Below, one piece after another: positions 54,015 through 64,000 of a stretch of 64,000 nucleotides of DNA. Position numbers and translations under genes: made by a program. A model generated the notes under the pieces. It saw nothing but the letters and a program-made list of their open reading frames with translations, did not search any database and had not been told where the DNA came from. The stretch spans positions 1,721 through 65,720 of the forward strand of contig JAKLJW010000008.1 in the NCBI GenBank assembly GCA_023150935.1, in the 5' to 3' direction. Each line of letters opens with the position of its first letter. Position 1 is the first letter of the stretch. This DNA is from Candidatus Binatia bacterium (lineage in GTDB: Bacteria; Desulfobacterota; Binatia; HRBIN30).

Positions 54015-55046
54015 ATGAACATATCTGTCGCCCTTGTCGACGGGACGGCCTTGGACGAGGTCCTGAACCGGCTCTTGCCCGCGGAAACGGAGCTGCCTTA
54101 CGCCAACTTCGCTCCGATCGCGGCGCGCCCGGGCGCCATCGTCGAACTGCATCGCGGGCGTTGGCTTGCCGCCGGCGAGCGCATCGAGGTGCTGGCCGCC
54201 TATGCAGGCGACCGCCCTCTCGGGGCGGTGCGCATCGAACATCGGCCCTTCGAGTCGGATCACTTCGGCTTACGCATGGCGCGCATCGACCAACCCATCG
54301 CCGTCAATGACTGCGTTGCACGCCGGACCGTGCTGCGCGAGCTGTACGCCGCGGCATTCGACAGCTTGCGTGGGCGCGGGTACCGGCACGTCAGCTCCAG
54401 AGCCTCGGCGAACGACAGCGCCGCGTCATGGGTCCTGCAGGAGCTGGGGGCGTTTCACGTCGACACGCAGGTGTCGTGGATGAGTTCTCTCGACGGTCCC
54501 GCGCCGGCGGACAATCTGGCTCCGGGCCTGACGGTCGAAATCCTGGACAAGCCCGCCCTGCGACGGCTCGACCGGGAATCCTGGCGTCAGGTGGTGGAGT
54601 GGACCGCGCAGGCCTTCGAGCGCGGCCCGTTGGTGTTCGACCACACGCTGCCGCGCGACCGCGCCGCCGGCGTGTACGGGGTCTGGGCCGAGCGCGCCAT
54701 GTGCGGCGATTGGGCCGACGCGGTTTGTGTGGTGCGCGACGGGAGCAAGATCGTGGCGTTCGGCTCCATGCTGCTTTTGGCAGACGTTTCCGCGCACGGA
54801 GGGGTTCGCGTGTGCGGTCGCGGTCTCGCCGCGACGCTGCCGAAGTATCGCGGCCTGTTCACCGCCATTCATCGCGAACTCATCGTGCGCAAGCCGCTCG
54901 GCGCCCAGTTCGCCGAGACCGACACCCAGGTGACCAATCTGGGTAGCGTCAACGTCTGCGTCAAACTCGGGTTCCGGTGCTTACGAGTCACCTCGACGTT
55001 CAGTCGCCGGCTCGACCAGGCCGCCGCCGGCACGGAGACTGGTTAA
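54015..55046 (+). CDS. Two-domain GNAT-like acetyltransferase (WecD-like)
   Basis: ATG at 54015 inside track ORF 53433..55046. RIEHRPFESDHFGLRMARID resembles the WecD N-domain start. The C-terminal VAFGSML...GRGLAATLPKYRGLF...VKLGF resembles a GNAT motif A/B region. The assignment is moderate. Confidence 0.5.
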   Translation: MNISVALVDGTALDEVLNRLLPAETELPYANFAPIAARPGAIVELHRGRWLAAGERIEVLAAYAGDRPLGAVRIEHRPFESDHFGLRMARIDQPIAVNDCVARRTVLRELYAAAFDSLRGRGYRHVSSRASANDSAASWVLQELGAFHVDTQVSWMSSLDGPAPADNLAPGLTVEILDKPALRRLDRESWRQVVEWTAQAFERGPLVFDHTLPRDRAAGVYGVWAERAMCGDWADAVCVVRDGSKIVAFGSMLLLADVSAHGGVRVCGRGLAATLPKYRGLFTAIHRELIVRKPLGAQFAETDTQVTNLGSVNVCVKLGFRCLRVTSTFSRRLDQAAAGTETG

Positions 55047-56011
55047 GAGTCTCGGGGTGACTCGCCGGCCCGGGCCCGGGTGCTGCCGTTTCGCGGTCCC
55101 TGCCGCACGACGTACGCGGGTTCGGCGCCGGCGACGAGGCGATACACGCGACCCAGGTACAGGCCCAGCATGCCGCCCGCGAAGAACACGGCACCGGTCA
55201 GCACCAGCGTGAGGGCGGCGGCGGGGATGACCCAGCCCGCGCCATCCAGGATGGCCCACAGGATCAGCATCGCCACGCCGGCCACAGTGCAGAGGGCCCC
55301 CGCCGCGCCCATGAGAGCGAGGGGCAGGGTGGTGAACGCGGTGATGAGGTCGAAGTTGATGCGCAGCAGCTTGAGCAGCGAGTACTTCGACGTGCCGAAG
55401 CGGCGGGGTTCGTGCCGGACAGTCACCTCGGTTACCGAGTGCCCCAGCCAGAGCGCCAGCGGGAAAAAGGGCTTACCGGGCGCCCAGGCGCGCCGCGTCG
55501 TCTCCAGCGCATCGCGACGGTAGGCTTTGAAGTTACCGCCGTAGTCCTCGATCTCGACTCCCGTCAGTCGGCACGCGAGCCAATGGATCGCCCGCGAACC
55601 GAGCCAGCGGAGGAGGCCCTCGTACCGACTGCCGCGCCGCGCGGTGGCAACGGCCGCGCCCGCCTCGATGGCGTCGAGCAGGCGCGGGATCTCTTCGGGT
55701 GGATTCTGCAGATCGCCGTCGAGGGTCACTGTCACCGCCCCGATCGCGGCAAAGAGCCCGCAGGCTAGAGCGGCGGCCTGCCCGAAGTTGCGGGTGAGCT
55801 CGAAGACGCGCACCCGCGCGTCTTGCGCCTCGATGGCGCGCAACAGCGCGACCGTTCCGTCACGGCTGCCGTCGTCGACGAAGATCAGCTCGAAAGTCTC
55901 GCCGCGCGCCGCTAACGCCGCGCTCGTGCGGTCAGCCAACTCCTTGACCGTATGGACGTCGTCGTAAACCGCGACGACGACCGAGATGGCAGGGGTTGTC
56001 TCAAGAGTCAT
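55043..56011 (-). CDS. GT2 polyprenyl-phosphate glycosyltransferase (ArnC/DPM1-like)
   Basis: ATG at 56011. ISVVVAVYDDVHTVKEL...FELIFVDDGSRDGT...TRNFGQAAALACG...TLDGDLQNPPEEIPRLL, plus two C-terminal TM helices. Confidence 0.85.
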   Translation of the reverse strand: MTLETTPAISVVVAVYDDVHTVKELADRTSAALAARGETFELIFVDDGSRDGTVALLRAIEAQDARVRVFELTRNFGQAAALACGLFAAIGAVTVTLDGDLQNPPEEIPRLLDAIEAGAAVATARRGSRYEGLLRWLGSRAIHWLACRLTGVEIEDYGGNFKAYRRDALETTRRAWAPGKPFFPLALWLGHSVTEVTVRHEPRRFGTSKYSLLKLLRINFDLITAFTTLPLALMGAAGALCTVAGVAMLILWAILDGAGWVIPAAALTLVLTGAVFFAGGMLGLYLGRVYRLVAGAEPAYVVRQGPRNGSTRARAGESPRDS

Positions 56012-58523
56012 CGCGTGCCGATTCCGCTGCGGCCAGATAGCGCGCGGCGGTTTCACCCAGTACCTCGGCGAGCGCCGCATCTCCCCGCGCAAGTGCGGCT
56101 GCCTTGCCGCGCTGCGCAGCCTCGGCCGCGGCGCTCCAGCGACGGTCCGCCGCGTACGCCGCCGCCAGAGTGGCGAGTGTGCCCGGATCCGCGAACCGGG
56201 TGGTCTGGCAGGCCCGCTCCGCCCAGTGCACCGCCTCCTCGGTCAGTCCCGGCGCCCGGCCGTCGAGCAGGGCTCGCGCCGTTGCCTCGAAGAGCGCCGT
56301 TTGCGCGAAGTTCCGCCGCACCGCCGTGCGCAACTCCTTCCGGGCTGCGTCGGGCTCCCCGCGCGTTTCGAGCTCTCGCGCCTCGGCCAGCACTGCCCCC
56401 GCCCAGGTCGCTTCCGTCTCGAGCCGCGCGCGGCATCCCACCTCGACCCATTCCCGATCGGGCAGCGCCGGAACCCACCCGGGACCGGTGGGACGCGCCA
56501 CGAACGCGCGTGAGAACCCCGCCCGGTCCGTGAGCACGTACACTGCGGCCGCCGGCCACTCGCGACATATCGCTTGCCGGACGAGCGCGTCTTCTTCGAG
56601 GGCCGGGTTCCAGACAATCAGTTCGGCCTCGCCCCCATTCGCTCCCGCCTGCCGCGGCGGACTTCCGTCGAACGGCCGCACCGACACCGGGTGCCGCACG
56701 AGGTCCGCGGCAAACTCGTTCAGGTACCAGTACGGAAAGCCGCGCGGATTCGGATGGTCGAGGAAGAGCACGCCACCCGGTACGGCGGCCGCCCCCAATG
56801 CCCGTAGAGAAACACTCACCCACGACGCCGGTAAGGTGTGGGGGACGACGCGGTCGAAAACGAAGCTCCCGCCAGCCGCGACTCCCAGGGCGGCGAGGGC
56901 GGCGGCGACCGTCGCGGTCCACCCCTGAAGACGGAGCCAGCGTTGCAACGTCGTCCATCCGACCCCCGCCAGCAACGCCATCGGCACGGTCATCGCCACC
57001 AGTCGTATCACGGAGATCCGATCCTGACTCGACAGAACCGCGGGCCCGGCGCCCAGAACCAACGTGCCCAGGAGCAGGCGTGCCGGCCACCCGCGGGTGA
57101 GAGCGCCGAGGGCCATGACGGCACCGACCACGGCGAGGGCCGTGCCGACGGGATCGAAAAGCGCGTCGCCGATCTTCCGCAGCGGGGTGCGAGCCACCGC
57201 TACGGGGGACAGCGCGGCGGCAAGTACGATGTCCCACGGTCGGGGGCTGGCGGCTTCCACCACGTACTCGGACCGTCGCGGCGAGATCTGGCCGAAGGCC
57301 GCCGTTTCGTGCCCGGCCCACTGGGCCCGGCCTTGCGAGTACGTGGCAGCTACCGACCGCAGGTTGCCGAAGTCGGTGCGGCCCGTGACTGCGCCGGCAA
57401 AGAACAGGAGTATCGCGGTGAGCACGACCTGGAGCCGCTGCGGGCGCGGCCACGCACGGCAACACATCAGCCCGGCAACCATCACTGCGAGCGCAACCAG
57501 GTTTGCCGTGTGCAGGGTCACCCCGATGCCGGCGAGCCCGCCAAGGCCGACCAAAGCCGCTGCGGACTGCCGCAGGCGGACCGCCGCGAAGAGGCCGATC
57601 AGCCCGGCGACGACCAGCGGGAAGAAGAAGAAGGGCAGCGGCGTCAGGACCAGAGCCAGCACGTAAGGCGAGAACAACAATGCCGCGGCCGCGACGGCGG
57701 CGGCGCCGAGGCCGAAAAGACGGCCCGCGATCCATCCGACGAGCAACCCGCACACCGGGAACCAGATCAGGTGGGCCGCCTGAGCGACGCGGCCGGCGAG
57801 ATCGATCCCCACCGTGCGTAACAGCGGCGCCCCTTGCAAGATGAAGTGATACGCCCCGGCGCCCGTCATTACTCGATCGGTGAGGAGGTTGTAATCGGGC
57901 TGCGTTACCTGAGAGAGGAACCGGATCCCCACCCAGGTGTCGGCGAGGTCGGCGGCGTCCGGCGACCGCCACATCGACGGCCCGCGCACGGCGAGCCAAC
58001 CGACAGCCACCAACGCGGCGACGGCCACACTGCCGGCCGTCCGCAGGCGGCGCGGCCGCGGCCGGGTGACCAGCACGAGGGGTGGCACCGCAAGACCCGC
58101 CACGTAAAGGAGCTGTCCCGCACGGCCGAACCTGTCCGCCCACAGACCCGCGACTGCCAGCAGGCCGGCGACCGCGAGGGCCACCCGTACGCGCCAGGTC
58201 GCCGCACGATCGGCGGGCGTCACCATCCGCAGACGCTCGTCGCACAGTGGGTTTGCCGATGGCGGAACCAGCCCGAGCAGCAGCAAGCCGGCGGCCGCGA
58301 GGCAGCCGAGCCGCCCGACGACCCACCACCCGGGCACGCCCGGGAAGAGCCGGTCCAGCAGCGTCGCACCCGGGGCGATGGGAACGATCGGTTGGCCCGG
58401 CGGCGGGACGAACAACGGCAGGCAGTACGCCGCAAGCAGCGCCAGTACCAGCCAGGGGCCGGCCCGGACCGCAAGGCGTTGCGGCGGCGGGTTTCCCGTC
58501 GGCGTGTGCATCGATCGGTGCAT
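56001..58523 (-). CDS. Polytopic membrane protein (GT-C/ArnT-PMT-like) with a C-terminal soluble TPR-like domain
   Basis: ATG at 58523 shares one nt with the aminotransferase stop (TGATG). About 12 hydrophobic spans over about 600 aa, followed by a helical Ala/Arg/Glu-rich tail (..EARELETRGEPDAARKELRTAVRRNF...LATLAAAYAADRRWSAAAEAAQ..). The track ORF N-terminus (to 59282) overlaps the upstream gene and was rejected. Confidence 0.5.
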   Translation of the reverse strand: MHRSMHTPTGNPPPQRLAVRAGPWLVLALLAAYCLPLFVPPPGQPIVPIAPGATLLDRLFPGVPGWWVVGRLGCLAAAGLLLLGLVPPSANPLCDERLRMVTPADRAATWRVRVALAVAGLLAVAGLWADRFGRAGQLLYVAGLAVPPLVLVTRPRPRRLRTAGSVAVAALVAVGWLAVRGPSMWRSPDAADLADTWVGIRFLSQVTQPDYNLLTDRVMTGAGAYHFILQGAPLLRTVGIDLAGRVAQAAHLIWFPVCGLLVGWIAGRLFGLGAAAVAAAALLFSPYVLALVLTPLPFFFFPLVVAGLIGLFAAVRLRQSAAALVGLGGLAGIGVTLHTANLVALAVMVAGLMCCRAWPRPQRLQVVLTAILLFFAGAVTGRTDFGNLRSVAATYSQGRAQWAGHETAAFGQISPRRSEYVVEAASPRPWDIVLAAALSPVAVARTPLRKIGDALFDPVGTALAVVGAVMALGALTRGWPARLLLGTLVLGAGPAVLSSQDRISVIRLVAMTVPMALLAGVGWTTLQRWLRLQGWTATVAAALAALGVAAGGSFVFDRVVPHTLPASWVSVSLRALGAAAVPGGVLFLDHPNPRGFPYWYLNEFAADLVRHPVSVRPFDGSPPRQAGANGGEAELIVWNPALEEDALVRQAICREWPAAAVYVLTDRAGFSRAFVARPTGPGWVPALPDREWVEVGCRARLETEATWAGAVLAEARELETRGEPDAARKELRTAVRRNFAQTALFEATARALLDGRAPGLTEEAVHWAERACQTTRFADPGTLATLAAAYAADRRWSAAAEAAQRGKAAALARGDAALAEVLGETAARYLAAAESARDDS

Positions 58524-59719
58524 CAGGCGCTGAAGTGTTGGACCAGACGCAGAAGCGCCTCGATGACGTCGTCCTGGTCGGCGTCGGTCATGGCCGGATG
58601 CAGCGGCAACGACAGCAACCGTCGCGACGCATCGGCCGCCACGGGCACTGCCTCCGGCGGCGTACCCAGCACCGCGCGGAAATGCCGGTGCAGGGGCAGA
58701 GCACGGAAGTGCACGCCGACGCCGATATTTTCGGCCAGTAATCCGCGCAGCACTTCGTCCCGATCGATGCGCAGTCGCTCGAGATCGAGCAATACCGGGA
58801 ACAGGTGCGCGGCGGTCTCGGCGCCGCCGGGGCCGACGACCGGTCGAACGGCGGGGACCAGTGCCAGGCGTTCCCGGTATCGCGCATCGAGCGCCCGGCG
58901 GCGCGCCAGCAGTACCGGCAAACGCTCGAGCTGGGCAAGACCGATCGCCGCCTGCAAGTCCGTCAGGTTGTACTTCCAACCGAGCGAGACGGCTTCCCAG
59001 TGGGCGAAGTTCGTCCCCCGGCGTTGGCTCGCATCGAGGTCGATACCGTGCAGGCGTTCCCGCCGCAGCCGCGCGACCAGGGCGGCGCGCTCGGTGGCGA
59101 TCATGCCGCCCTCGCCGGTGGTGATGCTCTTCGTCGGATAGAAGCTGAAGACCGCGGCGTCGCCAAGCGTTCCGACGGCGCGCCCGTCGAGAGTGGCGCC
59201 AAGCGCGTGTGCCGCATCTTCGATCGCGAACGCGCCTTGCGCCCGGGCCAACGCCAGCAACGGAGGCATCGTGCACGGCCACCCGGCATAGTGCACCGCA
59301 ACTACGGCACGCGTGCGCGCTGTCCAGGCCGCCGCGACGGCAACGGGGTCGAGCGTCAGGCGGTCGGGGAGGACATCGGCAAGCACCGGCCGCGCTCCGG
59401 CGTGCAGGATTGCGTTCGCGGTTGCGGCGAAGGTCATCGGTGACGTGATGACATCGTCACCGGGTCCGAGCGCGAAAGCCCGCAGAGTCAAGTGCAACCC
59501 GGCAGTGCACGACGCCACCGCAACGGCGCGCTCGGCCCCGATGGTCGCGGCGAAGCGGTTCTCGAACTCCGCCGTGCGCGGGCCGGTTCCCAGCCAACCC
59601 GAGCGCAGTACGTCGATGACGGCGGCCTCCTCGGCCGCGCCCAGCACCGGGCGCGACAGCGGCAAGAACGTCGTGCGAACGGGCGTTCCGCCGGCGATCG
59701 CCGGTCGCTCCGCGCTCAT
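58523..59719 (-). CDS. DegT/DnrJ/EryC1/StrS-family sugar aminotransferase (ArnB/WecE-like)
   Basis: 398 aa. ...VLRSGWLGTGPRTAEFE..., DDVITSPMTFAATAN, AIEDAAHALGA, and FSFYPTKSITTGEGGMI (PLP-lysine context). Confidence 0.9.
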   Translation of the reverse strand: MSAERPAIAGGTPVRTTFLPLSRPVLGAAEEAAVIDVLRSGWLGTGPRTAEFENRFAATIGAERAVAVASCTAGLHLTLRAFALGPGDDVITSPMTFAATANAILHAGARPVLADVLPDRLTLDPVAVAAAWTARTRAVVAVHYAGWPCTMPPLLALARAQGAFAIEDAAHALGATLDGRAVGTLGDAAVFSFYPTKSITTGEGGMIATERAALVARLRRERLHGIDLDASQRRGTNFAHWEAVSLGWKYNLTDLQAAIGLAQLERLPVLLARRRALDARYRERLALVPAVRPVVGPGGAETAAHLFPVLLDLERLRIDRDEVLRGLLAENIGVGVHFRALPLHRHFRAVLGTPPEAVPVAADASRRLLSLPLHPAMTDADQDDVIEALLRLVQHFSA

Positions 59720-60034
59720 CTCGTTTCCGGTATCCGGCCGGTGCGGCGACTGCGGTCAACCACCGATGTCACACCGGCCCTGCGAATTGCGCTGTGTATG
59801 CAAACCGCTCGCGTTGCCCTCAAGAAGGCCGAACCAGGCGCCGGACAGCCGCCCGAGTCGCCGGACGTTGCACCTTCTCGATTCATTGCGCCGACGTCGC
59901 AAGTTCATTGCACCGGGACGCGGAGCATACCGAATGCGTGTCGCCGAGGGCAAGGAACCGGGGGCCGTAAGCCCGGCGGTATGCGCAGGGGCTAGTGGAA
60001 AACACCGGCCGCTGCATGCTAGCCATCGTACCCG

Positions 60035-60571
60035 ATGCGCGCGTGGGTTCGCAAAATTCTTCGCCGGCAGGTACCCGCAGAGAGCATCCCGGAGGTGCGG
60101 CAGGAGATAGCCACGACGCTCGAGGCCGCGCAGCGGTCGGCCCGCGCGGTTGCCCGGCTGGGGCTACGTTTGGACCAGGTGGAGTCGAAGCTCGAGGGCG
60201 GCTTCGCCGATCTGCGGGCCCAGCTAAGTACGTTTCGCAGCAATGGCGTGCCGGCGTCTCGCCCGCCCTTCGAGCTGCTCTTCGACGCTGCCGACCTCCT
60301 CGACGAAGCCGCACGGCTGAGTGCTTCGCCCGGTCACGCGGCGGGGCTCGCCGGCATTCGCGAGCGACTGGAGCGGTTTCTTTTCGAAGCCGGCCTGCAA
60401 CGAGTGGCGCAAGTGGACGGTCCGGTGGATCCGCTGCGCTTTCGCGTCGTGGGCCGCGAGGACGGCGGCGCGAGGCCGCGCGTGATACGTGCGGCAATCC
60501 TCGACGGCGAGCGGCTGGTTCGCGAGGGCGAGATCGTTCTGGAACGCGAGAGGGAGGAAGCCACAACATGA
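60035..60571 (+). CDS. GrpE-like protein (divergent nucleotide-exchange-factor homologue)
   Basis: 178 aa. The N-half is predicted to be long helices. The C-terminus GLQRVAQVDGPVDPLRFRVVGRE....RPRVIRAAILDGERLVREGEIVL parallels the GrpE beta-domain (G...i...G..FDP..H.Av........V......GY...gr.lR.A.V.V). Translationally coupled (ATGA) to the Hsp70 gene. Confidence 0.5.
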   Translation: MRAWVRKILRRQVPAESIPEVRQEIATTLEAAQRSARAVARLGLRLDQVESKLEGGFADLRAQLSTFRSNGVPASRPPFELLFDAADLLDEAARLSASPGHAAGLAGIRERLERFLFEAGLQRVAQVDGPVDPLRFRVVGREDGGARPRVIRAAILDGERLVREGEIVLEREREEATT

Positions 60572-62253
60572 GTGCCTTCGGTATAGATCTCGGAACGACC
60601 AATTCCTCCATCTCGCGCATCGTCGACGGCCGCCCGGTAGCGTTGTCCGTGGACGGCTATCCGCTGCTGCCTTCGGTGGTGCTGTACCGCGACGGCGGCG
60701 TGACGGTCGGGCGCGAGGCTCGCAATCTCGAGCTGCAATGGCCCGAACACACCCTGCGCTCTGTCAAGCGCAAGATGGGGACCGGACACCGCTGGACGGT
60801 GGCCGGACGCGAGGTCGGTCCCGAGGAAGCTTCCGCCGAGATCCTCGCGGCACTGAAGCGCGGCGCCGAGGCGGCCACCGGGGAAACCGTTCGCGATGTT
60901 GTCATTACCGTGCCCGCCTACTTCGATGACGCCCAGCGGCGTGCGACCCTCAAGGCGGGCGAGCTGGCGGGTTTGAACGTCCTGCGCCTCTTGAACGAGC
61001 CGACCGGCGCATCGCTGGTCTACGATCAGGTTCGGCAGACCACGGCCCAGCCGGAGATCGTCATGGTCTACGATCTCGGCGGCGGCACCTTCGATGTGTC
61101 GGTGCTGGAGGTCTTCGAGGGGGTGCGCGAGGTCCGCGCCACGGCCGGCAACACTCACCTGGGCGGTGACGACTTCGACACGGCACTGGTCCGTTTTTTT
61201 GCCGATCGTCTCAAAGCCGAGGCGCACGTAGATCCACTCGGCGACGCGCATGCTCGCGTACGGCTTGCGCGCGTGGCCGAGGCCACGAAGATCCGCCTGT
61301 CGGCCGAAACGGAGGTCGACGTTGCCGAGGAGTTCCTGCTTGCCGACGACAAGGGCAAGCCGGTCCACCTGCGCCTGCAGGTCACGCGCCGTCAGCTCGA
61401 AGAAGCCATCGCGCCGCTGTTGGGGTCCACGATCGATCTGTGCCGGCAGGCGCTTGCCGAGGCGCGGCTCACGGGCGGACAGCAGCTCGCGCGGATTCTG
61501 CTGGTGGGCGGTTCCACACGTCTTCCCATGGTGCGCCGGTTGCTCCGCGAGGCCTTTCCCGATGCGCCCGTACACGAGGAGGTCGATCCCGACCTCGCCG
61601 TAGCGCTTGGCGCGTCGGTCCAGGCCGGGTTGCTGCGCGGAATCGCCCTCGAGCGGATACTCGTCGATGTCACGGCGCATTCGCTCGGCATGTGCGTTCT
61701 GAGCGAAGCCGACGATTTCAGGGAGAAGCCCGACACGTACGCCCCCATCCTGCACCGCAACACCGTGCTTCCCGCAGTGCGCGCCGAGGAGTTCTACACC
61801 CTTTTCGACGATCAGCCCGGGGTGACGGTCGACGTTTACCAGGGCGAGGCGCCCCGGGCCTCGCAGAACAACCACATCGGGTCGTTCCGCTTCCCGCTGC
61901 AGCCGGCGCCCGCGGGCTGCCCGGTGCGGGTAGAGTTCGCATACGATCTCAATGGAGTCGTGCGCGTGAGCATTGCCCAGTCCGGTACGGACAACGCCAA
62001 GACTGTGGCTTTGTCCGTTGCCGACACCGGCGTTCCCGTCAGCTCGGTCGACGCGCTCGAACGCCGGGTGGGCGCCCTGCTCGATCGCATTGCGGGCGAG
62101 GACAAGCCGGCGCTCGAAGCGGCGCTGGCAGCATGGCGCGTGGCACAGGGCGAGAGGCGTCAGGCTGCCGAGGACGCGTTGATCGATCTCTTGCTGTTCC
62201 TCGAAGACGAGGCCGAGGCCGACGGTATCGATGAGGAGGGCGATGGCGTCTGA
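60568..62253 (+). CDS. Hsp70-family ATPase paralogue (non-canonical DnaK)
   Basis: ATG at 60568 inside track ORF 59995..62253. GIDLGTTNS, VITVPAYFDDAQRRATLKAGELAGLNVLRLLNEPT, VYDLGGGTFDVSV, LLVGGSTRLPMV. 561 aa, with a short acidic tail and no EEVD or long lid. Confidence 0.88.
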   Translation: MSAFGIDLGTTNSSISRIVDGRPVALSVDGYPLLPSVVLYRDGGVTVGREARNLELQWPEHTLRSVKRKMGTGHRWTVAGREVGPEEASAEILAALKRGAEAATGETVRDVVITVPAYFDDAQRRATLKAGELAGLNVLRLLNEPTGASLVYDQVRQTTAQPEIVMVYDLGGGTFDVSVLEVFEGVREVRATAGNTHLGGDDFDTALVRFFADRLKAEAHVDPLGDAHARVRLARVAEATKIRLSAETEVDVAEEFLLADDKGKPVHLRLQVTRRQLEEAIAPLLGSTIDLCRQALAEARLTGGQQLARILLVGGSTRLPMVRRLLREAFPDAPVHEEVDPDLAVALGASVQAGLLRGIALERILVDVTAHSLGMCVLSEADDFREKPDTYAPILHRNTVLPAVRAEEFYTLFDDQPGVTVDVYQGEAPRASQNNHIGSFRFPLQPAPAGCPVRVEFAYDLNGVVRVSIAQSGTDNAKTVALSVADTGVPVSSVDALERRVGALLDRIAGEDKPALEAALAAWRVAQGERRQAAEDALIDLLLFLEDEAEADGIDEEGDGV

Positions 62254-64000
62254 TGGGTCGGCATGAGGAAAAACGGCGCAAGCGTGCCGGCGAGGCACTG
62301 ACGCGCGCCTTGCGGCGGGGGGAGGCAGAACCGGCGCTGGCAGCGCTGCTCGATCTGCCTCCGGACGAGCGGTCTGCGCACTCGCGAGCGGTGGGAGATC
62401 TCGTGACGGCGGCGGTAGCGGCCGACTTCCGGGCGCACCGCTGGGACCGGCTCGGATTCTGGGCGGCTCGAATCGAGCGCTGCGGGGGGTGGCTCGACGA
62501 CGAGAGTGGCGAACTGCGCTGGGCATTTTTCTGGGGCAGCGCGCGCACCGGCGCATGGGCTCGGGCGACAGCGCTCGTCGACGGCCTCGCCGGTCGGTTG
62601 CCGGCGGCCCTTGTCGATGCCCTCCGGGGATATGTCGCCGCCGCCGGCACTCCGGCTCCCGAGGGCCTCGATCGATGGGTTCCTCCGGCACTTACGGTGG
62701 CTGAGGCCGCGGACCCGCGCCTGGGGTACGACCGTGGGCAGGTGCCGGTAGCGCCCGCAGGCGAGCCCGAGGCTCCCGTCACGCCCGACGAGGTCGAGGA
62801 GAGAGTGCTGGCGGCGTGGGCTAGCCTCGGCTGGAACCGTTTCACGACCATGACCGGCAGTTGGGCGGCGAGGACACCGGCTCTCGCCCGTCCGATACGG
62901 CTGCTGGCTGCGCAATTGTCGGTTCGTACGCTGCTGGTGCGGGCGCGGGCCGCCGATGCAGGCTGGGAACAGGCGGCGCGGTTCATTGCCGCCGCGTGCG
63001 AGGATCTGAATCGCCCTGAAGAGCTGCGCGAAGCGATGGCATTGGCGGTGCGGGTTTCCCTGCGCGGCGGCAACGGTACGGTCGGTGGGGCGCTGACCGC
63101 CTGCCGGATGGCTAAAGCGGCGCTGGGTTATTCCGATCTTGCCAGCCTGGCGGTAACGGCATTCTGCGACCTGCCGAAAGTGGACCTGCACCGAGAGAAC
63201 GTTGTGACCCCGGACGAGGAGCGCCTCGCGCGCGAGATGCTCGCTCTGGGGCAGCGGTTACTCGAAAGGCATCCGGACCCTCACCTGTTCTGGCACGCCA
63301 TGCGCGTATGGGAGGGAGCGGGCGACGAGCCGAAGGTTCCGGGATGGTTGGGAAATGCCGTATCGACGCTGCTCGCGGACGGGGCGGACCTCGGCGGAGG
63401 ATTGCTGCAGATGGCGCCGGAAGATTGGCCGCGGTGCCTTTTTATCGCTGTGCACGCCCTGCCGCCGCCGATCGTGGAGCAGGTGCTGGAGTGCACGTGG
63501 GAGGCGGGGGGTCCGGCCCTCCGGCCCCACCTGGCGCAAGCGGCCGGATGCCTGATCGAGCGCCTGCGGCCAAAGACGCTCGGCAAAGAGCGGCTCGCCG
63601 AGGAGGCGCGGATCCTGCGCGAGAAGACAGGAATCGCGCTCTCGTTGGACGAGGTGCGGGCCATGTTCGAAAGCGCCGGAGGCCCGCTCCTCGACCTGCT
63701 CGGGGAGCGGACGGAAGGGCCGTTATCCGGGAAGGCGCTGGCGTTCTGGAAGCGCTTCGGCGAGCGTATCCTGCCCTACGACATTCGGCACCTGGAGTAC
63801 GCACTGGAAGTCGGGCCGGATCGGGCCACCCAGGAGACAGCTCTCGACCGCTACCTGGAACGGCGAGCCGATGCGGAGGCGATGCTCGACGAGATCCGCG
63901 CGGCGGATGGCGACGCCTGTGTTCTCGCCGCGGCGGCGATCGAAAGACGACTTCTGGAGCGATACGAGCGCGATCCGGCGGCGCTGGCCGGGGCGTTCCT
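62253..64000 (+). CDS. Large hypothetical protein, 3' end outside window (at least 582 codons)
   Basis: ATG at 62253 shares one nt with the Hsp70 stop (TGATG). I translated the frame by hand to position 64000 without meeting a stop: MGRHEEKRRKRAGEALTRALRRGEAEPALAALLDLPPDERSAH...WHAMRVWEGAGDEPKVPGWLGNAVSTLL...DIRHLEYALEVGPDR... It is absent from the ORF track because it has no stop. No family recognised. Confidence 0.6.
   Translation, partial: MGRHEEKRRKRAGEALTRALRRGEAEPALAALLDLPPDERSAHSRAVGDLVTAAVAADFRAHRWDRLGFWAARIERCGGWLDDESGELRWAFFWGSARTGAWARATALVDGLAGRLPAALVDALRGYVAAAGTPAPEGLDRWVPPALTVAEAADPRLGYDRGQVPVAPAGEPEAPVTPDEVEERVLAAWASLGWNRFTTMTGSWAARTPALARPIRLLAAQLSVRTLLVRARAADAGWEQAARFIAAACEDLNRPEELREAMALAVRVSLRGGNGTVGGALTACRMAKAALGYSDLASLAVTAFCDLPKVDLHRENVVTPDEERLAREMLALGQRLLERHPDPHLFWHAMRVWEGAGDEPKVPGWLGNAVSTLLADGADLGGGLLQMAPEDWPRCLFIAVHALPPPIVEQVLECTWEAGGPALRPHLAQAAGCLIERLRPKTLGKERLAEEARILREKTGIALSLDEVRAMFESAGGPLLDLLGERTEGPLSGKALAFWKRFGERILPYDIRHLEYALEVGPDRATQETALDRYLERRADAEAMLDEIRAADGDACVLAAAAIERRLLERYERDPAALAGAF

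Follow-up and report, generated by a model that had tools for sequence, protein, structure and literature searches.

What does an Hsp70 paralogue do when it is encoded together with an exchange factor of its own and a large helical protein? Many "DnaK derivates" are found in bacteria with large genomes, and what they do there is recognized as an unsolved problem (PMC13580251, PMC8265645). The question is raised in compact form at the end of a 64,000-nucleotide (nt) stretch of DNA from a Candidatus Binatia bacterium (the whole of which is called the window here), where genes for a GrpE-like protein, an Hsp70 paralogue, and a protein of the Pfam family DUF6109 run off the edge, and a gene for a J-domain protein follows just outside. 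In every locus examined, these four genes form a self-contained module, with DUF6109 as the constant partner. The module is conserved yet undescribed and is a recognizable variant of the dedicated Hsp70 system, with two features that stand out in its sequences: a J-domain that does not carry the HPD tripeptide and a partner protein with a motif resembling those that bind the sliding clamp. We propose, with a probability of roughly 0.55, that the cassette is a private, dedicated Hsp70 machine that has DUF6109 as its obligate client or adaptor partner.

An earlier note on this DNA, made from the sequence alone, had called for a phylogenomic survey of co-occurrence. That survey returned the set complete and in the identical order, GrpE-like, Hsp70, DUF6109, and J-like, in 18 of the 18 related loci examined. 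Fifteen of these loci are strong matches from a scan for the J-like motif, counted at one genome per species; three more were reached through divergent DUF6109 proteins, and one of the three lies on a contig that ends inside the gene 5' of DUF6109. Related loci are mostly from Myxococcota, the 15 coming from Polyangia, Nannocystales, Enhygromyxa, Archangium, Hyalangium, and Vitiosangium, from a Myxococcaceae metagenome-assembled genome (MAG), and from a MAG labeled Solirubrobacteraceae. Gaps between the genes measure -4 to +3 nt in most of the 15, the cassette is flanked by entirely different genes from one lineage to the next, and no fifth conserved gene was found beside it among the loci compared. 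Identity to the window proteins is 54 to 66% for the Hsp70, 40 to 58% for the J-like protein (full-length alignment), 33 to 55% for the GrpE-like protein, and 25 to 32% for DUF6109, which evolves much faster than the Hsp70.

The Solirubrobacteraceae-labeled MAG is the sole non-Myxococcota genome among the strong matches, and toxin-antitoxin, Uma2, and Cas4 genes lie around its cassette. Its DUF6109 gene (contig L011, 4572-6475; the same locus as L007/L008) is split into overlapping open reading frames (ORFs) of 387 and about 250 to 280 amino acids (aa), which suggests a frameshift or an assembly error, possibly in a decaying copy.

Within the window, the ORF list and direct translation gave three plus-strand genes coupled by overlaps (Table 1). 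An ATGA at 60568-60571 joins genes 1 and 2 and a TGATG at 62251-62255 joins genes 2 and 3, exactly where the earlier note had put them. Shine-Dalgarno-like runs lie 10 to 13 nt 5' of the start codons of genes 2 and 3 (GGGAGG at 60552-60557 within gene 1 and GAGGAGG at 62233-62239 within gene 2), and overlaps combined with internal runs of this kind read as the usual signature of translational coupling. Gene 3 is absent from the ORF list only because the ORF tool skips any frame that reaches an end of the sequence. A search for exact copies of the Hsp70 protein returned four metagenome contigs, among them L001, which equals the window over 13,433 nt with no differences and reaches 757 nt beyond its end. 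This supplied the sequence past position 64000 that had been asked for: gene 3, open for at least 582 codons as first described, is completed on L001 with a stop 271 nt past the window (window-equivalent position 64271), and gene 4 appears, overlapping gene 3 by ATGA, with its start about 270 nt beyond position 64000. No J-domain gene is visible within the window, as the earlier note observed, but the set does include one.

Table 1. Features of the cassette and its surroundings, in window coordinates
Feature	Position	Strand	Source or remark
Gene 1, GrpE-like exchange factor, 178 aa	60035-60571	+	ORF list, translation
Gene 2, Hsp70 paralogue, 561 aa, begins MSAFGIDLGTTNS	60568-62253	+	ORF list, translation
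Gene 3, DUF6109 protein, 672 codons of which 582 lie in the window	62253-64000	+	Open to window end
DPRLGYD codons, DUF6109 residues 154-160	62712-62732	+	Family alignment
Gene 4, J-domain protein, 125 aa	64268-64645 (window-equivalent, outside window)		Contig L001
Divergent intergenic region, DegT-type aminotransferase gene (minus) to cassette	59720-60034	.	ORF map
DegT/ArnB-type aminotransferase	58523-59719	minus	ORF map
840-aa polytopic membrane protein, helical-repeat C-terminus	56001-58523 (= L001 5434-7956)	minus	
GT2 glycosyltransferase, third of Arn-like trio	within 55043-59719	minus	

The Hsp70 encoded by gene 2 retains the catalytic motifs of an Hsp70 and lacks part of the canonical lid. 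It matches PF00012 at 2e-119, its alignment with DnaK structures (1e-100) extends as far as residue 497, and its family conserves GIDLGTTNS, DLGGGTFD, VGGSTRIP, and the hydrophobic linker RILVDV. An AlphaFold2 (AF2) model with a mean predicted local distance difference test score (pLDDT) of 90.3 has a normal nucleotide-binding domain (residues 1 to about 356), the linker, a beta substrate-binding domain to about residue 483, and then a lid of only three short helices (residues 493 to 551) followed by an acidic tail. The first description of this protein, as an Hsp70 with ATPase signatures, a reduced lid, and an acidic tail, is borne out. The missing EEVD, offered there as a distinguishing feature of the tail, is not one, as EEVD is a eukaryotic feature and its absence from a bacterial Hsp70 carries no meaning. 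Canonical DnaK was defined here by a score over the curated equivalog cut-off together with a full five-helix lid. For NCBIfam PRK00290 / TIGR02350, the gene 2 protein reaches 428 bits where 648 are required and 426 bits where 823 are required, and it is also well below the curated HscA cut-off in NCBIfam.

Two surfaces through which DnaK meets its cochaperones are kept. The J-docking residues of DnaK (R167, N170, E171, and T173) are conserved as R-x-x-N-E-P-T, and the loop equivalent to the GrpE-signature region of DnaK has a DnaK-like length, which fits the presence of a GrpE gene in the cassette. With catalytic motifs, linker, J-docking residues, and GrpE loop all retained, an active ATPase cycle served by a nucleotide exchange factor is plausible for this protein. 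Particular to the family is an insertion of 9 to 14 aa in loop L1,2, adjoining the substrate cleft. Its members also carry a conserved amphipathic, acidic C-terminus, AEEALLDFFLxxE, which could dock on the DUF6109 superhelix. In a rough neighbor-joining (NJ) tree the cassette Hsp70s form their own clade, outside that of HscC, and by BLAST they score about 300 to 324 bits to DnaK versus 236 to 261 bits to HscC. Beside the cassette clade in this tree branches the Hsp70 of a Polyangiaceae MAG (L030, 6132-9268), where J-like, weak GrpE-like, and Hsp70 genes follow one another on one strand without DUF6109; this may be a sister system.

The position of the Hsp70 also bears on a comparison made in the earlier note, with the grpS-sglK pair of Myxococcus xanthus. 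If the cassette were the orthologue of grpS-sglK (or of stk), its role would lie in the control of exopolysaccharide and type IV pilus-dependent motility. The pairing is alike in that a GrpE homologue is encoded directly 5' of an Hsp70 and cotranscribed with it, and the best relatives of the cassette Hsp70 suggest that its host, too, is probably a myxobacterium. However, SglK (MXAN_6671) is a full-length, canonical PRK00290-class DnaK that complements an Escherichia coli dnaK mutant (PMC8265645), whereas the cassette Hsp70 scores below the cut-off of that class and belongs to a separate clade. SglK has neither a linked J-protein nor a linked DUF6109 gene, the 120 best relatives of the cassette Hsp70 include none from Myxococcus, and the J-like motif scan returned no Myxococcus locus. 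Orthology with grpS-sglK is in consequence very improbable and largely refuted. Identity with the M. xanthus stk locus was rejected, stk being StkA-SCP2-StkC, as was identity with the CoCoNuT systems containing the Hsp70-like CnuD, which are McrB/McrC fusions with degenerate ATPase motifs.

The two cochaperone genes are recognizable mainly through their families. The gene 1 protein alone has no Pfam match, and 9 of 10 orthologues match PF01025 GrpE (best 9.5e-17); the family profile aligns along its full length to the GrpE structures 3a6m (1.7e-6), 1dkg (9e-5), and 4ani (1e-3). Alignment of its N-terminus, MRAWVRKILRR, with the orthologous MFxWLRRLF supports the assigned start codon. Judged by these matches, the gene 1 product is a divergent GrpE-type nucleotide exchange factor, as had been suspected from its C-terminus.

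Gene 4 presents a similar case. All 11 orthologues compared match PF00226 (best 5.7e-6), the protein on L001 itself staying under the gathering score of 27.8 with 18.5 bits, and the family profile matches the J-domain structures of DNAJA1, Sis1, and DnaJ at about 3e-6 to 1e-4. Profile matches of this kind identify the product as a J-domain protein, soluble in appearance and composed of a J-domain and a helical C-terminal part of about 60 aa. The HPD tripeptide is not kept in this family, which has H-[P/S]-P-[H/Q]-x-D-P (HPPHxD) instead: in an alignment with DnaJ, HscB, DNAJA1, and Sis1, the Asp position of HPD is occupied by Pro, and a conserved Asp stands three residues after it. Loop and helix III together read HPPHTDPAGFRRVRDAYEAL, close to HPETDPQGFKxLRQAYEEAL of E. 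coli DjlB and DjlC, and the J-domain is of the short-loop type found in those two proteins.

Short-loop J-domains resembling that of gene 4 are widespread. A broad subtype with the loop H-x-P-[DE]-x-D-P-E-G-F-[RQ]-R-x-R-D-A-Y-E, to which DjlB and DjlC belong, was seen in loci L024-L078, usually at the N-terminus of proteins of about 550 to 1000 aa; examples are L035 and L042 in Pseudomonas, L031, L037, and L040 in Planctomycetota/Verrucomicrobiota, and L045, L049, L055, and L075. Many of these genes adjoin true HscC-clade or other noncanonical Hsp70 genes.

The protein encoded by gene 3 had been described as a giant without a placeable motif. Complete, it is 672 aa long, and it matches Pfam DUF6109 (PF19604) at 8.5e-35 in its truncated form and at 1.3e-41 as the full protein (143.5 bits against a gathering score of 25, with protein residues 1 to 649 aligned to positions 1 to 634 of the 671 in the profile). 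No paper mentioning DUF6109 was found in the literature searched. The family is small: an exhaustive HMMER search among 1.84 billion representative proteins gave 103 relatives, nearly all of 600 to 760 aa and aligned end to end, indicating a single architecture. That search replaced a word-index search, which from either a single sequence or a 72-sequence profile gave two proteins each, a poor yield explained by the low-complexity Ala/Leu/Arg composition of the family. The earlier expectation of an all-helical protein agrees with the AF2 model (pLDDT 88.8, predicted template modeling score [pTM] 0.73), in which an all-alpha superhelix extends to about residue 628 and is followed by a disordered basic tail. 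The fold is TPR/HEAT-like, with only generic repeat matches.

Candidate recognition peptides in DUF6109 are DPRLGYD and the basic tail with QLDLF; those considered for binding to the Hsp70 are DPRLGYD and RGRKAQLDLFEAG. DPRLGYD (residues 154 to 160) is better conserved than any other linear motif in these proteins, with R156, L157, and G158 present in 83 to 93% of 72 members and an invariant P175 C-terminal to it. Its loop is of low confidence or flexible in the AF2 model (pLDDT <50 at residues 149 to 155 and 158 to 163), and it may serve as a binding site. Every DUF6109 member has a disordered tail rich in Lys and Arg (about 25% Lys/Arg), and some tails carry AKK or TKK repeats like those of histone H1. 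One subset has a tail with (D/E)-x-(I/L)-P-F at the extreme C-terminus, an ending that we take to recall the tip of the single-stranded DNA-binding protein (SSB), DDDIPF. Tails tend otherwise toward a terminal Q-[LVI]-x-L-[FLP], which 23 of 72 members carry (shuffling predicts 1.4) and which in the window protein is QLDLF, residues 656 to 660 of 672. This pentapeptide, lying in the disordered basic tail, matches by sequence the beta-clamp-binding consensus QLxLF, often C-terminal in the proteins that carry it (PMC4549789). Alternatively, a basic tail with a Leu-containing core might be a target for an Hsp70 substrate-binding domain, as HscC-type domains favor positively charged peptides (PMC8215388).

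In architecture, the nearest characterized relative is HscC-DjlC. An alignment of the cassette Hsp70 with E. coli DnaK, HscA, and HscC places it in the same length class as HscC (561 versus 556 aa), and the two share the lobe-I deletion, the L1,2 insertion, the same pair of one-residue deletions within the beta domain, the shortened lid, and an acidic aliphatic C-terminal tail. The cassette protein therefore has the HscC-type length of 550 to 580 aa, insertion, short lid, and lobe-I deletion, but neither the loss of the GrpE loop with GrpE independence nor a place with HscC in the tree. HscC lacks the GrpE-signature loop and is thought to be GrpE independent, whereas the cassette Hsp70 keeps the loop and has a coupled GrpE-like gene. 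DjlB and DjlC share the short-loop J-domain with gene 4 but are about 480 aa long rather than 125 aa. The hscC locus of E. coli (ybeQRS-TUV-hscC) likewise has helical-repeat (Sel1) genes, although its Sel1 and DUF1266 proteins stand where the cassette has the unrelated DUF6109; hhalign gave a probability of <0.1% for DUF6109 against either YbeT (Sel1) or YbeU (DUF1266). The hscC neighborhood in E. coli K-12 (676000-681663; L082, 1-5664) is a tandem duplication of Sel1-repeat, DUF1266, and J-protein genes, the duplicated units being ybeQ-ybeR-djlB and ybeT-ybeU-djlC, and represents another Hsp70 system with helical-repeat partners.

For the way the cassette might work, the closest analogy is HscA-HscB acting on IscU. 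As proposed for the cassette, that system pairs a specialized Hsp70 with a small J-protein in which a J-domain is joined to a helical client-binding domain, and it serves one dedicated client read through a short conserved loop motif, LPPVK (mechanism in part from PMC8215388); its genes share one operon, as the cassette genes do. By this analogy, the helical C-terminal part of the J-protein, about 60 aa, would dock on DUF6109 and deliver it to the ATP-bound Hsp70. The substrate-binding domain would then clamp a flexible segment of DUF6109, either the DPRLGYD loop or the Lys/Arg-rich tail with Qxx(L/I)(P)F, and the GrpE-like protein would reset the cycle. ATP turnover would in this way switch the conformation, assembly state, or partners of DUF6109, the partners possibly being DNA and the beta sliding clamp. 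The analogy has its limits. HscA works without a nucleotide exchange factor and has lost the GrpE loop, whereas the cassette encodes a GrpE-like factor and its Hsp70 keeps the loop; the client IscU is a small Fe-S scaffold, whereas DUF6109 is a 672-aa superhelix; HscB keeps HPD, and the cassette J-protein does not; and no Fe-S genes were found near the cassette. Of the readings considered, the one suggested in the earlier note, a specialized chaperone-client or chaperone-scaffold system, agrees best with this evidence.

Several points weigh against a dedicated machine with DUF6109 as its client. In the J-like protein, the Asp of HPD is replaced, giving HPP. In DnaJ this Asp is essential for stimulation of the ATPase, so the J-like protein could be a nonstimulating regulator. 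The tail motif of DUF6109 has acidic residues, which classical DnaK binding sites disfavor, and its sequence agrees with the beta-clamp consensus no less well than with an Hsp70 site. Rapid evolution of DUF6109 would be compatible with a client and also with an adaptor or with the sensor of a conflict system.

One possibility, tenable though clearly less probable, is that DUF6109 is a TPR-like adaptor or cochaperone whose groove takes the AEEALLDFFLxxE C-terminus of the Hsp70, while its tail anchors the machine at a site such as DNA or the beta clamp, where third-party proteins would be remodeled. The arrangement would resemble TPR cochaperones on the tails of eukaryotic Hsp70s. It is in keeping with a TPR/HEAT-like superhelix, with an Hsp70 C-terminal motif conserved across the whole family, with the placement of QLDLF inside a basic, histone H1-like tail near the C-terminus, where the clamp consensus is often found, and with the Sel1 (TPR-like) repeat genes of the E. 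coli hscC locus. Nevertheless, DUF6109 has no sequence relation to YbeT or YbeU, no gene for a third-party client is conserved nearby, and we know of no TPR clamp described for the tail of a bacterial Hsp70.

The same tails raise a more speculative option, which we consider unlikely, in which DUF6109 is a platform tethered to DNA and the replisome. Its histone H1-like tail would bind DNA, its QLxLF ending, or (D/E)xIPF in other members, would engage the beta clamp or the partners of SSB, and its loading, unloading, or activation there would fall to the private Hsp70, GrpE, and J proteins. If true, such a platform would be a new chaperone-driven device of social bacteria that acts on hubs of replication or repair or, during infection, blocks them.

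Mention of infection leads to the question of whether the cassette is a conflict or antiphage module, in which the fast-evolving DUF6109 would be the sensor or effector (it might, for instance, occupy clamp or SSB-partner sites during infection) and the Hsp70 cycle would gate its activation. The hints lie in neighborhood content and in rates of evolution. Distribution is patchy and resembles horizontal transfer, with unrelated flanks; some neighborhoods have STAND/NACHT NTPases, a caspase-STAND-WD40 protein, toxin-antitoxin pairs, Uma2, and Cas4; sequence divergence in DUF6109 far outpaces that in its partners; and part of the family has the (D/E)x(I/L)PF ending, which resembles the SSB tip. 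Sets of Hsp70, GrpE, and DnaJ are also known from predicted conflict systems of multicellular bacteria, the GAP1-N2 GTPase systems, which encode HSP70, GrpE, and DnaJ-FNIII together (Kaur et al. 2020, PMC7159879). Like the cassette, those systems join Hsp70, GrpE, and a J-domain to an extra large protein in bacteria of multicellular habit. They are built, however, on a GTPase core with FNIII repeats, neither of which the cassette has, and they occur in Actinobacteria and Firmicutes, whereas the cassette occurs in Myxococcota. Against a conflict role, moreover, PADLOC defense models give only a marginal Hsp70 match (E 0.0017), the cassette carries no nuclease, protease, pore, or other effector domain, and the window copy adjoins sugar-modification genes rather than defense genes. 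STAND genes are so abundant in Myxococcota that finding them nearby could be coincidence. We regard a role in conflict as possible but doubtful.

The sugar-modification genes lie divergent to the cassette on the minus strand (55043-59719) and form an Arn-like trio (Table 1). Such DegT, GT2, and membrane glycosyltransferase neighbors are not conserved with the cassette elsewhere. The intergenic region between the trio and gene 1 presumably holds the cassette promoter. A scan of the region 5' of the cassette found no sigma-70-like site, and no k-mer that could mark a promoter or operator motif was common to the upstream regions of orthologous cassettes across lineages. The intergenic region also contains a pair of nearly identical direct repeats, TTCATTGCGCC and TTCATTGCACC, placed 26 nt apart 5' of gene 1 (59870-59915), with no counterpart 5' of orthologous cassettes. 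In two fairly close relatives, the Myxococcaceae MAG (L010) and Hyalangium (L012), a similar upstream stretch, CCTACT.A...GGTTACAT..TG.C.G.CCCT.TG, lies about 40 to 70 nt 5' of the GrpE-like start and may be an operator or merely reflect shared ancestry.

Among the many Hsp70 paralogues of large-genome bacteria, this cassette offers a clean, portable case in which a single paralogue is accompanied by an exchange factor and a J-protein dedicated to it and by one obligate partner. DUF6109, a Pfam family without an assigned function, gains a concrete biochemical context. HPPHxD is a natural variant of the supposedly invariant HPD, found alongside a coevolved Hsp70, and the DPRLGYD motif and the basic QLDLF tail supply candidate recognition peptides. 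If the clamp-motif reading is true, the cassette would be a dedicated Hsp70 machine linked to the replisome.

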